This document shows, in pieces, positions 23,234 through 27,255 of a DNA stretch of 64,000 nt. The position numbers and the translations under genes were made by a program. This DNA comes from Aplysia californica. Its lineage: Eukaryota. The DNA is taken from positions 1,483,107 through 1,547,106 of the forward strand of contig NW_004797350.1 of NCBI RefSeq assembly GCF_000002075.1, in the 5' to 3' direction. The number at the start of each line of letters is the position of its first letter. Position 1 is the first letter of the stretch. A model generated the notes under the pieces. It saw only the letters and a list, made by a program, of their open reading frames with translations. It had not been told where the DNA came from and did not search any database.

Positions 23234-24157
23234 CTAAATGTATTTTTGTTTTGATTTGAAAGGATTCTCATATCTAATATCATTTGTAGCTTTATGTTTA
23301 AGATGCTGATACACACCTGAGCATTGTTCAAAGTTTAATTTATCTTCAAGACTAATACTTGCTGCTTTTTCAAGAGTAATGTCAAGGAAAAAGTCATTTA
23401 CAAAATAAATTTGGTAGATATCACATATTTTCGATAAGAAGTGACCAGAAACATATTTGAAGCCACAAAACAAGAAAGGCAGCTGGTGATCAAGCAGTTT
23501 CAAAATAACAAAACCTGAACAAGACAACAAAGCCAAAAAAAATGTCCTTAAGCTGCCATACGGTGGATATTTCCTGTACGCTATTATCCCACCAGTAACA
23601 GCAGCCAAAATGTGAAATCCAAGAGCAATCTCAAACCCTATCTTTGAAATAAGCACCAAGCCGTAACTCAGTATGGAGATGGTCAAAATCACAAAAAAGC
23701 GAAGAGATGACCAGCCCCGCTGAAGATACAATCCCCATCCGAGAAGAAGGGCGAAAAACGGCAATGTACACCACTGATCCAGCACAGCCCAAATGACAGT
23801 CTGAGTTGTGATTCTCAGAAACTGAACCACACCATAAATGCTGGCCATTATGTTCAAACAATAAAACAACCTTGAATCGTTTCCTTTCAACATTCCTTGA
23901 GTAGTTGCTGTTTTAGTGAACCAACACCAGTAAAGACCGAGTCCTGTATATCCAAAGTTGATCAATGTGTTTAGAGGCATCACATTAGTAAATGGCAGCC
24001 ATGCTTCTTCTGCATAATGTTCCAGGCCAATTTCTAATTCAGCATTGTCGAAGATTCCAGTGTATGAAATGCCAACTAAGACAAAAAATATCACAGAAAC
24101 TGGAAAGAAACTGGAAAGCCACAGTTCCATTTCCCTTTGTTGAGTTGATATTGTCAT
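23234..24157 (-). CDS. TMEM187: Transmembrane protein 187, whole CDS in one exon (about 307 aa)
   Basis: Multi-pass ORF with EIGLEHYAE, MPLNTLINFGY, YGVVQFLRI, AVLDQWCTLPFF, GFEIALGFH, LLSCSGFVILKLLD and SGHFLSKICDIYQ, recognisable as TMEM187. The ATG at 24157 is preceded directly by a pyrimidine tract and CAG acceptor, implying an upstream 5' exon. Confidence 0.9.
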   Translation of the reverse strand: MTISTQQREMELWLSSFFPVSVIFFVLVGISYTGIFDNAELEIGLEHYAEEAWLPFTNVMPLNTLINFGYTGLGLYWCWFTKTATTQGMLKGNDSRLFYCLNIMASIYGVVQFLRITTQTVIWAVLDQWCTLPFFALLLGWGLYLQRGWSSLRFFVILTISILSYGLVLISKIGFEIALGFHILAAVTGGIIAYRKYPPYGSLRTFFLALLSCSGFVILKLLDHQLPFLFCGFKYVSGHFLSKICDIYQIYFVNDFFLDITLEKAASISLEDKLNFEQCSGVYQHLKHKATNDIRYENPFKSKQKYI

Positions 24158-24616
24158 CTGTAAACCCAAAAAGAGACAGAATAAAGCATTAGAACCTTGT
24201 ATGGCAAATCACTACATCACAATGGAAATGTTTGTAATATGTCAGACACATTATCCTGATACTGATAAGGATAAAATGTCCTTCTACAAGTGAAGAGAAT
24301 ACATTTTCTTTTCCTTGTAGTACAGACCTATCATTGCTATCTAGTTTTAGAAATCAGAATAAGTAGGCTAAATATTTGTTACGAAATTTCAAAAATTCAT
24401 TCAGCTAGAAAATTTTCGGCTTTCTTAAAAATTTTTCACATCTGCTTTCATACTTGAGATCTCCGAGGGACATTATCATGGATATATTCAAGGTTACAAA
24501 ACAACTCTCATCCTTGAGGACAATTGGATTATTATTTAAAACCAGGTTATCTTGTTTTAGCTACTGTACTCAAGGAATCGAAGGGCAAAAACAAAAGGAA
24601 AAATAACATTGCCATT

Positions 24617-25605
24617 TACTTCACAGTACTCATTCAGACATGCAGGGAAGCATGGACCTTTTTTCCAAAGTCTGCGACAATTTCGGCCTTATTATCTCCA
24701 CAAAGAAGACAGAAGTACTGTACAAGCCAGCCCCATCGGCTGCTTACATAGAGCCCCAATTTACCATCTACACCAGAGAAGTTTGTCTACCTTGGCAGCA
24801 CCCTCTCTTGCTCGATCAATATCGATGAGGAAGTGACCTACAGAACAGCCAGAGCTAGTTCAGCCTTCAGCAGACTGAAAGACAAGGTCTGGGAGCAAAG
24901 AGGACTGAGCTTTAACACCAAGCTCAAAGTGTATATAGAGCAGGAGTTCTACCATCCCTGCTCTACACCTGCAAAACGAGGACAGTCTACAGCCGGCATG
25001 CCAAGCAGCTCAATGCCTTCCACATGAGATGCCTCAGGACCCTGCTTCATATCAAGTGGCAAGACATAGAGTCCCAGACATTGCAGTACTACAGCGGGCC
25101 GAGATGGAGAGCATATATACGCTATCCTACTGCGCTCTCAGCTCCGGTGGGCTGGCCACATTCACCGCATGGACAACTTTCGCCTCCCAAAGAGGTTACT
25201 CTATGGAGAACAGACCCTAGGCAAACATTCTCTCGCGGACAGAAAAAATGCTTCAAAGATGCCCTGAAAGCATCCCTGAAAATTTCTGACATTCCCCATA
25301 CCACCTGGGAAGAAGCTGCTCACGATCGCACAGTTAATTGGCGCTCCTTAGTAAGATCGGGAGTCGCCAAGTTCGAAGAAAGACACATCAGAAAAAAGAA
25401 TTGAGACGGCAGCTGAGAAAAGACCGAGAGAACTCTACCTTCCAGCCTAGTTCAGCCCCAAACATCCCCTGCCCCCCCCTGCAATAAACATAAAATTTCC
25501 GAGCGAAGATCCGACTGATCAGCCATCTCCGCACACACCCCACCCCTCCAGCGATGTGAAGTCAGGGTCATCTTCACCAGCGAAGGACGAACATCATCAT
25601 CATCA
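24617..25605 (+). mobile_element. 5'-truncated, frameshifted RTE-clade LINE, antisense within the TMEM187 intron
   Basis: Fragments MQGSMDLFSKVCDNFGLIISTKKTEVL, RTARASSAFSRLKDKVW...TKLKVY, MRCLRTLLHIKWQD, GQKKCFKDALKASLK and WEEAAHDR, a C2H2-like LISHLRTH, and an (ATC)n microsatellite tail at about 25592-25605. Confidence 0.85.
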
Positions 25606-25754
25606 ATTGCTTAGTACTTAATTTCCCCCTGTTGTAGAAAAAAAGATCTGACGGATTACAGCAGGGGCAAGTCCCCTTGTTTTAACCCATCATGATGTTT
25701 CGCAGTTAAGTTTGACATTGAGTGCAAGAGTGAGTGAAAGTTAAAATTTACCAA

Positions 25755-25831
<77 letters not shown>

Positions 25832-26429
25832 CAGCTTTTCAAGTCATTTCTTTATGTAGGCCTCAAGTGATCGCTGTCTTCTTTATCTTTAGACCTACTT
25901 AGCCTTAGATACCACTGATACAGGTAGGTAGTGCAGTAGGCTACACTCAGTAGCAATAATTTCTCAATTTCTAGCCCATTTGGTCTAGAAATCCATATAA
26001 AATATAATAATTATGTGGCCAAAGAATTTAAATTAATGGTTTCCCATATCAGTCATTCGAAGCATGTGTTTGTTATCCTTTGTCCATGGGATTATTCTGC
26101 CACCACATAAAGGTCTATAGAGGCTACAAATTAGTACAAAGCTACAATACTCGTATTAAACCATTATACTTATAGTACATGTAGCATACGTCTATTATAG
26201 TTATAGTATAGCATTTTTTTTACTGAAGTTATACACATTGGACTGCGGCCTACTTCAGTGCACAGCTTGCTATAATATATAGTCATAGTTAGAGATAGTC
26301 ATACTAGATTTAGGCCTACATTTTAACTGAACATATTTGAATCCCGGCATCTGTAGGCCTACTGAGCACAAGACCATAGATATATACAGATCTCTATATA
26401 TATATATAAGATGACAAAATATAACCCAC

Positions 26430-27255
26430 CATGAATGTAGAAACATTAAAGGGGCCGGTAAAGAAAGTAAGCTCTGCTGTCACACACAATCACAGACAAC
26501 TTGGGAGCAAACGCGTCTGTTCGCATGGGGCAGGTAACGCCTTTTTGTTTGGGCTTGCAACAACCTTTGACCTATGAACTCTGAAGTGTTTTTTAGCGAT
26601 TTCTTATAAACACTTTTTTTTTTCTCTGTTTTGCCCTTTCAAGTTTTCCTTTTGATTTTTAAGAAATTCAAACTAAAGGAAAATGATATTTTGATTTTTA
26701 CTTCATTTTACTTCTAAAAACACAACTAATTCGTTATAATAAATTATGCTAAATAGTCACATGATATGTAAATGATGTTTTCACATACGGGCATTTCAAA
26801 CCTACATTTTGTGCTTTCAATATGGCGGCTCCCATATTGAAATGGAAGCGGGTAACAAATACTTCAGGACCATGTCCAAGACCGCGCCATGGACATCGTG
26901 CAGTGGCCATAAAGGATCTAATGATTGTATTTGGTGGTGGAAATGAAGGAATAGTGGATGAATTGCACGTATACAACACTTGTAAGTAACTGTTTGTTTC
27001 ATGTGTACTGCTCCATTATCAAAAATGGCGGCGTTTGTGTTGTTTCGATTGCGATTTCAGCTTTCGAGAAATAAGAACGATTGAAACGTCTTATAAAAAC
27101 AGTCAAATTAATTTCCTGCATTGTGATATCATTTTGAACATTTGTGTGTGTTTTTTCTAGTCCATAATTTGTTTTAGATCTGAATGTTTTCGAAAAAGCG
27201 GCAGTTGCCAATGAACTGCGTCGGGAGCTTGGGAAGATTCAAAATGGCGGCGCCC
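26430..27255. promoter_or_regulatory. Putative bidirectional TMEM187/HCFC1 promoter region with YY1 motifs
   Basis: Divergent genes; locally CpG-richer sequence; AAAATGGCGGC at 27022 and 27241, and CAATATGGCGGC over the HCFC1 ATG. Confidence 0.6.

Follow-up and report, generated by a model that had tools for sequence, protein, structure and literature searches.

A divergent HCFC1-TMEM187 gene pair in Aplysia californica that is very probably ancestral to molluscs and vertebrates

HCFC1 and TMEM187 lie head-to-head in Aplysia

We analysed a stretch of 64,000 nucleotides from the sea slug Aplysia californica (NCBI RefSeq assembly GCF_000002075.1, contig NW_004797350.1, positions 1,483,107 to 1,547,106 of the forward strand), referred to below as the window, in which the genes for host cell factor 1 (HCFC1) and for the membrane protein TMEM187 are neighbours. 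HCFC1 on the plus strand and TMEM187 on the minus strand diverge from each other head-to-head; the space between them is free of other genes and holds only a remnant of a long interspersed nuclear element (LINE). The features of the locus, numbered from the first letter of the window, are as follows.

23234..24157, minus strand: main coding exon of TMEM187, 307 amino acids plus stop (PF15100 match, 81 homologues, tree)
24158..26429, minus strand: probable TMEM187 intron 1, 2,272 bp, GT..AG, phase 0 (acceptor seen, donor inferred)
24630..25605 (approximate), plus strand: decayed, 5'-truncated LINE remnant in the TMEM187 intron, ending in (CAT)n (broken reverse-transcriptase-like reading in three frames)
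26430..26432, minus strand: probable true start codon of TMEM187, at the 3' end of exon 1 (Met-Met start, best ATG/GT site)
26433..26821, no strand: AT-rich interval of 389 bp, expected from the two start codons to hold both 5' untranslated regions and a shared promoter
26751..27750, no strand: CpG-enriched stretch, observed/expected 0.98-1.27, centred on HCFC1 exon 1/intron 1
26819..26829, plus strand: YY1-like motif spanning the start codon of HCFC1, its sequence in part dictated by the Met-Ala-Ala codons
26822..26981, plus strand: HCFC1 coding exon 1 (Kelch_HCF match, exon chain)
26822..57848, plus strand: HCFC1 gene body, running from the start codon to roughly the final FN3 exon detected (P0096 exon chain, C-terminal FN3 exons)
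27022..27032, plus strand: YY1-like motif in HCFC1 intron 1 (motif search)
27241..27251, plus strand: YY1-like motif in HCFC1 intron 1 (motif search)

A first-pass annotation made from the letters alone had named the minus-strand open reading frame (ORF) TMEM187 and placed it head-to-head with HCFC1, and both identifications hold. PF15100 is the sole Pfam family matched by the ORF at 23234-24157 (E 2.5e-66; 224 bits, the curated cut-off being 27), with profile positions 3-239 of 240, i.e. the whole domain, covered. On the other strand, HCFC1 exon 1 carries a Kelch_HCF match. Exon 2 agrees at 100% identity with 'host cell factor 1 isoform X3 [Aplysia californica]', an isoform (P0096) whose 19 exons all map to the window with GT..AG introns; the C-terminal FN3 exons of HCFC1 were found near 56873 and at 57540-57848. 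The two proteins belong to unrelated Pfam families, i.e. the genes are non-paralogous neighbours. There is no assembly gap between 334 and 31480, and an Rfam scan of the window gave 0 matches.

The main TMEM187 exon opens on an ATG at 24157 that is directly preceded by AG with a pyrimidine tract, resembling a splice acceptor. Whereas the genomic frame reads Gln-Met here, the database TMEM187 protein of the window (P0004, 308 amino acids) begins Met-Met, indicating that the P0004 model has a spliced upstream ATG. Eight minus-strand ATG/GT sites occur in 24160-31000 (the slash marks the exon-intron junction). The top-scoring one, ATG/GTGGGT at 26430/26429 (5.3 bits), fits the Met-Met start and is the very donor put forward in the first-pass annotation; the runner-up (4.0 bits) lies inside the LINE remnant. 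Scores came from a matrix built from 18 true HCFC1 donors, whose leave-one-out scores are 3.3-12.3 bits, and the donor at 26429 ranks merely 12th among all 160 minus-strand GT sites between TMEM187 and HCFC1. We regard it as the likeliest, though not a proven, splice site for TMEM187 exon 1. If it is right, TMEM187 has two coding exons, the first coding by one codon, in place of the single coding exon described earlier, and the start codons of TMEM187 and HCFC1 lie 389 bp apart. The separation of 2.7 kb first reported is accurate for the ATG at 24157 and the HCFC1 ATG at 26822 (2,665 bp) and falls away for the probable start codons. The LINE remnant, which we take to be RTE-like, makes up about 1 kb of the 2.27-kb TMEM187 intron; a Pfam scan of two of its pieces gave no match.

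TMEM187 orthology and linkage to HCFC1 in other invertebrates

A search that reaches only proteins sharing exact words with the query identified 81 TMEM187 homologues among 3995 candidates, with one named match per species. The best named matches were those of Lymnaea, Elysia and Plakobranchus (56-58%), and Latimeria TMEM187 was 42% identical (E 2.9e-45). The 26 named species in this search are molluscs, one nemertean and deuterostomes; a profile search of 50%-identity representatives returned 189 proteins at E <= 0.001. The tree has 27 rows, namely the window protein and the 26 named homologues; in it the window TMEM187 falls with six heterobranch gastropods (100/99), and all seven deuterostomes are on one side of a branch (94/94), apart from the protostomes. 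By these sequence comparisons the ORF behaves as an orthologue of vertebrate TMEM187. A chordate origin of the DNA is ruled out by the Aplysia identity of HCFC1 and the heterobranch placement of TMEM187, and the protostome source assumed in the first-pass annotation is borne out.

Linkage elsewhere was assessed by a proxy for gene order, the equal size of the contigs given for TMEM187 and HCFC1 of one species. An HCFC1 was found among the best 120 matches for 14 of the 26 named TMEM187 species, and the 12 without one listed there were dropped. Both proteins were given an equally long contig in 11 of these 14 named invertebrates: small scaffolds are shared in Physella (1.68 Mb), Candidula (0.77 Mb), Plakobranchus (4.5 Mb), Mizuhopecten (1.05 Mb) and Ylistrum (1.19 Mb), and the matches are of chromosome scale in Biomphalaria, Mya, Mytilus, Octopus, Lineus and Holothuria. 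A further pair (P0009/P0102) shares a 0.74 Mb scaffold. Assuming random placement on a 30-60 Mb chromosome, the chance of sharing is 1-6% for each of the four smallest scaffolds and 8-15% for Plakobranchus. Only the five small scaffolds bear on microsynteny, and they represent two independent groups, three heterobranch gastropods and two scallops.

The pair in vertebrates

In human, HCFC1 and TMEM187 have their promoters, first exons and first introns within one accessible block of 3 kb, which is flanked on one side by the 3' end of TMEM187 and on the other by exon 26 of HCFC1 (PMC9779294). Such flanks mean that the human genes are also head-to-head, with gene bodies running in opposite directions. 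The divergent human arrangement cited in the first-pass annotation agrees with this, and the 5'-5' orientation of the pair is kept in Aplysia and human. A human TMEM187 missense variant lies in exon 2, in a report that calls the function of the gene unknown (PMC10712119). The order in gar is HCFC1-TMEM187-IRAK1-MECP2; in the teleost Xiphophorus, HCFC1 abuts opsins without TMEM187 (PMC5686071).

Signs of a promoter on the HCFC1 side

The CpG-enriched stretch at 26751-27750 comprises the three highest of 44 segments scanned in 20001-31250, the other 41 having observed/expected values of 0.16-0.82, and its composition is typical of an unmethylated promoter. In 26400-27400, AANATGGCG occurs three times (26819, 27022 and 27241), always on the HCFC1 strand. 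It fits the YY1 consensus AANATGGN(C/G), and an overlap with start codons is frequent among YY1 sites (PMC3491394). The human HCFC1 promoter has a YY1 element with a pathogenic variant at c.-970 (PMC11078748). A promoter shared by HCFC1 and TMEM187, which the first-pass annotation thought probable, is plausible. If the donor at 26429 is right, the 389-bp spacing of the start codons would imply transcription starts within 1 kb of each other. The 389-bp interval also contains plus-strand donor-like sites at 26458 and 26534 (5.6 and 6.9 bits) and an acceptor-like pyrimidine tract near 26610-26643; HCFC1 may have a non-coding first exon near or overlapping TMEM187 exon 1.

TMEM187 is predicted to adopt a ceramidase-like fold

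An AlphaFold2 model of TMEM187 from a 79-row alignment has a predicted local distance difference test score (pLDDT) of 92.5 and contains eight long helices. Comparison with 48,161 chains in VIA-align gave the alkaline ceramidase ACER3 as the best match (Z 19.4, root-mean-square deviation 2.8 A over 214 aligned residues), followed by the SID-1-family chain 8j6o (Z 17.1), SID-1 (16.6) and AdipoR2 (14.9), with the first natural G-protein-coupled receptor at 12.1. Foldseek likewise ranked ACER3 first, at E 0.029, with no match at E <= 0.001, and Atlas features placed TMEM187 at 0.95 to a cluster of which 69% are Ceramidase members. A sequence-profile search against the PDB returned ribosomal protein S9 at E 0.41-0.72, which we reject as chance matches. 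The model thus assigns TMEM187 the seven-helix CREST core fold (VIA-align, Atlas, PMC10041065).

We examined the CREST motifs as defined in PMC3146951 and PMC13562381, neither of which names TMEM187 in the parts drawn on, pairing positions by helix layout rather than by superposition and counting over the 27 alignment rows. At the end of core helix 2, SxxxH is replaced: Q112 and R115 occur in 27/27 rows, and no His is found at 115 or at 116, the other alternative to the lost His, which is I116. Core helix 3 retains the Asp at its start (D127, 27/27). At the start of core helix 7, H239 is present in 26/27 rows, but the second His of HxxxH is K243 in 26/27, so that the motif reads HxxxK. TMEM187 therefore resembles ACER3 and other CREST proteins in fold, helix 3 Asp and the first His of helix 7, and differs from them in having no three-His zinc site, as follows from the loss of SxxxH and the HxxxK reading, and in one extra N-terminal helix. 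The modelled pocket is polar, basic and conserved, as would suit lipid binding without zinc. For human TMEM187, the likeness to ACER3 and the absence of the zinc ligands are already in print (PMC10041065). The first-pass annotation had offered the linkage as a clue to the function of TMEM187; this part is not upheld, as a membrane protein of predicted ceramidase fold and a nuclear cofactor are tied only by shared broad expression. The functional lead comes from the modelled fold, already published, and owes nothing to HCFC1.

Other features of the window

On its far side, TMEM187 lies tail-to-tail with an SLC26-type anion transporter gene (about 790-16006, plus strand; Sulfate_transp and STAS matches), where vertebrates have IRAK1 and MECP2. 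Within HCFC1, a 735-bp block holding most of exon 2 is repeated at 100% identity (28363-29097 and 30746-31480); the second copy abuts a 100-N gap (31481-31580), followed by a tandem repeat with a period of about 353 bp (31581-32745). This exact duplication is probably an assembly artefact. A dispersed repeat of 140-190 bp and 83-86% identity, probably a short mobile element, has three copies in or after HCFC1 (37344-37535, 42507-42686 and 59694-59835).

A late HCFC1 intron harbours a 7.9-kb piggyBac-type element (48488-56378) with TTAA-flanked 18-base terminal inverted repeats. Its transposase ORF (50112-51935, plus strand, 607 amino acids; PF13843, E 5e-67) is directly preceded by a pyrimidine tract and AG. 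In the Aplysia isoform X3 (P0096), about 1,350 HCFC1 residues are spliced in frame onto the transposase, the C-terminal FN3 repeats are dropped, and the terminal exon is at 53808-53909. The transposase is fused in just 1 of 228 HCFC1 matches, and two of the three positions that we take to be the catalytic Asp residues of piggyBac transposases read Asn349 and Gly448. The fusion, known here from annotation, resembles the primate CSB-PGBD3 fusion (PMC2268245, PMC3459987), and may outweigh the gene pair in interest.

Discussion

The HCFC1-TMEM187 pair is very probably ancestral to molluscs and vertebrates. The bilaterian microsynteny postulated in the first-pass annotation is well supported by the head-to-head arrangement in Aplysia and human, adjacency in gar and the equal contigs in most of the invertebrates sampled. 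Identity, orientation and spacing are shown for Aplysia and same-contig placement for other invertebrates, and the human and gar order is taken from papers; that the arrangement is ancestral, that a promoter is shared, that YY1 binds and that losses were reciprocal is what we infer. Taken as a whole, we consider it rather probable that the ancestral pair has been kept by a compact shared housekeeping promoter and is parted by reciprocal loss after duplication. Both genes would be transcribed from one short promoter region centred on HCFC1, where the CpG peak and the three YY1-like sense-strand sites lie, and TMEM187 would use its divergent output. A break within the few hundred bases between the genes would strip one of them of its promoter, which would be why the pair has stayed together. 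Separation would occur mainly after duplication, with the promoter retained in both copies and one gene lost from each, a release route proposed for conserved pairs (PMC3514665). The two products need not share a pathway.

Several points weigh against this reading. Adjacency and orientation are known only in Aplysia and vertebrates, and equal contig sizes establish neither of the two. Macrosynteny by itself would be enough to produce the six chromosome-scale matches. Three of the 14 species differ (Babylonia, Nucella and Apostichopus), although the Apostichopus mismatch may come from two different assemblies. No YY1-like site lies between the genes, the CpG peak and motifs being on the HCFC1 side; the site at 26819 is partly forced by codons, and the human site, 970 bp upstream of the ATG, is placed differently from those in Aplysia. 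The motif count itself speaks for the reading, as in dinucleotide shuffles of 26400-27400 AANATGGCG averaged 0.039 and 0/2000 reached three, but this control ignores the commonness of YY1 motifs near housekeeping start sites. The pair is also absent from a 2006 list of human genes with head-to-head start sites less than 1 kb apart (PMC1487180 supplements). On the supporting side, together with the Xiphophorus HCFC1 that lacks TMEM187 beside it, are the two clear breaks, those of the neogastropods Babylonia (P0022/P0218) and Nucella (P0027/P0224), with TMEM187 and HCFC1 on different contigs and a long shared stem branch (0.76) in the TMEM187 tree. The neogastropod ancestor underwent a genome duplication (PMC10401626). 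Babylonia and Nucella are thus candidates for separation after genome duplication. The land snail Candidula, presumably akin to Achatina, is still linked although a duplication has been reported in the latter, so that duplication allows a break and does not force one.

Passive ancestral adjacency, in which rearrangement is slow, the tiny target has not yet received a breakpoint and each gene has its own promoter, is a possible but doubtful alternative. Molluscs and chordates do retain many ancestral pairs (448-492 in Lottia and amphioxus; PMC3514665), and both the skew of the promoter marks to HCFC1 and the neogastropod break agree with it. Against this stand the small share of human genes, just 1-2%, that keep such linkages (PMC3514665), an interval that has seemingly stayed below about 1 kb while the neighbouring intron gained a 1-kb LINE, and the little room there for two independent promoters. 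A bolder extension of the shared-promoter account is improbable: that the YY1 cluster controls both genes from sea slug to human, forming a bilaterian unit undone only through genome duplication and keeping a zinc-free ceramidase-fold lipid binder, with invariant Arg115 and near-invariant Lys243 replacing the metal, in step with the nuclear cofactor HCF-1. If so, the human HCFC1 YY1-site variant would also alter TMEM187 expression.

Functional coupling of the products, for example TMEM187 as a lipid sensor dosed with HCF-1, would suit the long conservation of both the linkage and the polar pocket, and co-expression is higher in conserved 5'-5' pairs than in matched controls (PMC3514665). It is nonetheless distinctly unlikely, as the literature surveyed on either gene yielded no shared pathway, the products are a membrane CREST-fold protein and a nuclear cofactor, and neogastropods keep both genes on different contigs. 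Independent arrival of the same neighbours in Aplysia and vertebrates is very improbable: direct adjacency is shown in two lineages only, and a chance meeting is made easier if both genes, as is probable, started out on the same ancestral chromosome. Yet convergence would have to bring about twice the same partner, the same 5'-5' orientation and a TMEM187 gene of similar two-exon layout, and the small shared scallop scaffolds place close linkage no later than the split of gastropods and bivalves. An assembly or contamination artefact, for which one might point to the 735-bp exact duplication beside the N gap inside HCFC1, has a negligible chance of being the explanation, the sequence being gap-free from 334 to 31480, both proteins molluscan and the contig shared in related snails.

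If the pair is ancestral, the human Xq28 pair dates to before the protostome-deuterostome split. HCFC1 is linked to intellectual disability, and TMEM187 to autoimmune association signals. The 389-bp candidate promoter offers a compact test case for why such pairs persist, and the apparent neogastropod break is a case in nature for testing whether such pairs are parted by reciprocal loss once a genome has been duplicated.

Comparison with known systems

We found no report of an invertebrate HCFC1-TMEM187 pair in the titles and abstract openings of the literature searched. The survey of conserved ancestral microsyntenic pairs (CAMPs; Irimia et al. 2012, PMC3514665) does not mention the pair in its main text, although its supplementary CAMP table, outside this check, may list it; nor is the pair found in the main text or two supplement files of PMC13508932, of which table S17 is possibly not part. 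Neither gene is named in four supplementary files of PMC7817982 or occurs in PMC11839130 (version 2), and six PMC2871058 supplements, indexed largely by other identifiers, gave no match by gene symbol.

The human Xq28 locus is like that of Aplysia in its divergent genes and in the TMEM187 coding sequence in exon 2, and YY1 regulates human HCFC1. Aplysia differs in having the SLC26 gene as the other neighbour, not IRAK1/MECP2, in a TMEM187 exon 1 that appears to supply the start codon, and in YY1-like sites at the ATG and in intron 1, versus about 1 kb upstream in human. CAMPs number 595, with a 5'-5' share of 54.8% in human and 68.6% in Lottia (PMC3514665). Like their co-regulated 5'-5' class, HCFC1 and TMEM187 are two unrelated divergent genes with a short interval, common to vertebrates and a mollusc; unlike CAMPs, for which four major lineages are required, the adjacency of this pair is shown in two. 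HSPD1-HSPE1 is likewise an ancient 5'-5' pair, on a shared promoter (PMC3514665), but its products form one complex and are strongly co-expressed (r = 0.81), and no such link is known for HCFC1 and TMEM187. Set beside these systems, the HCFC1-TMEM187 pair is a real, further example of an established phenomenon rather than a new principle.

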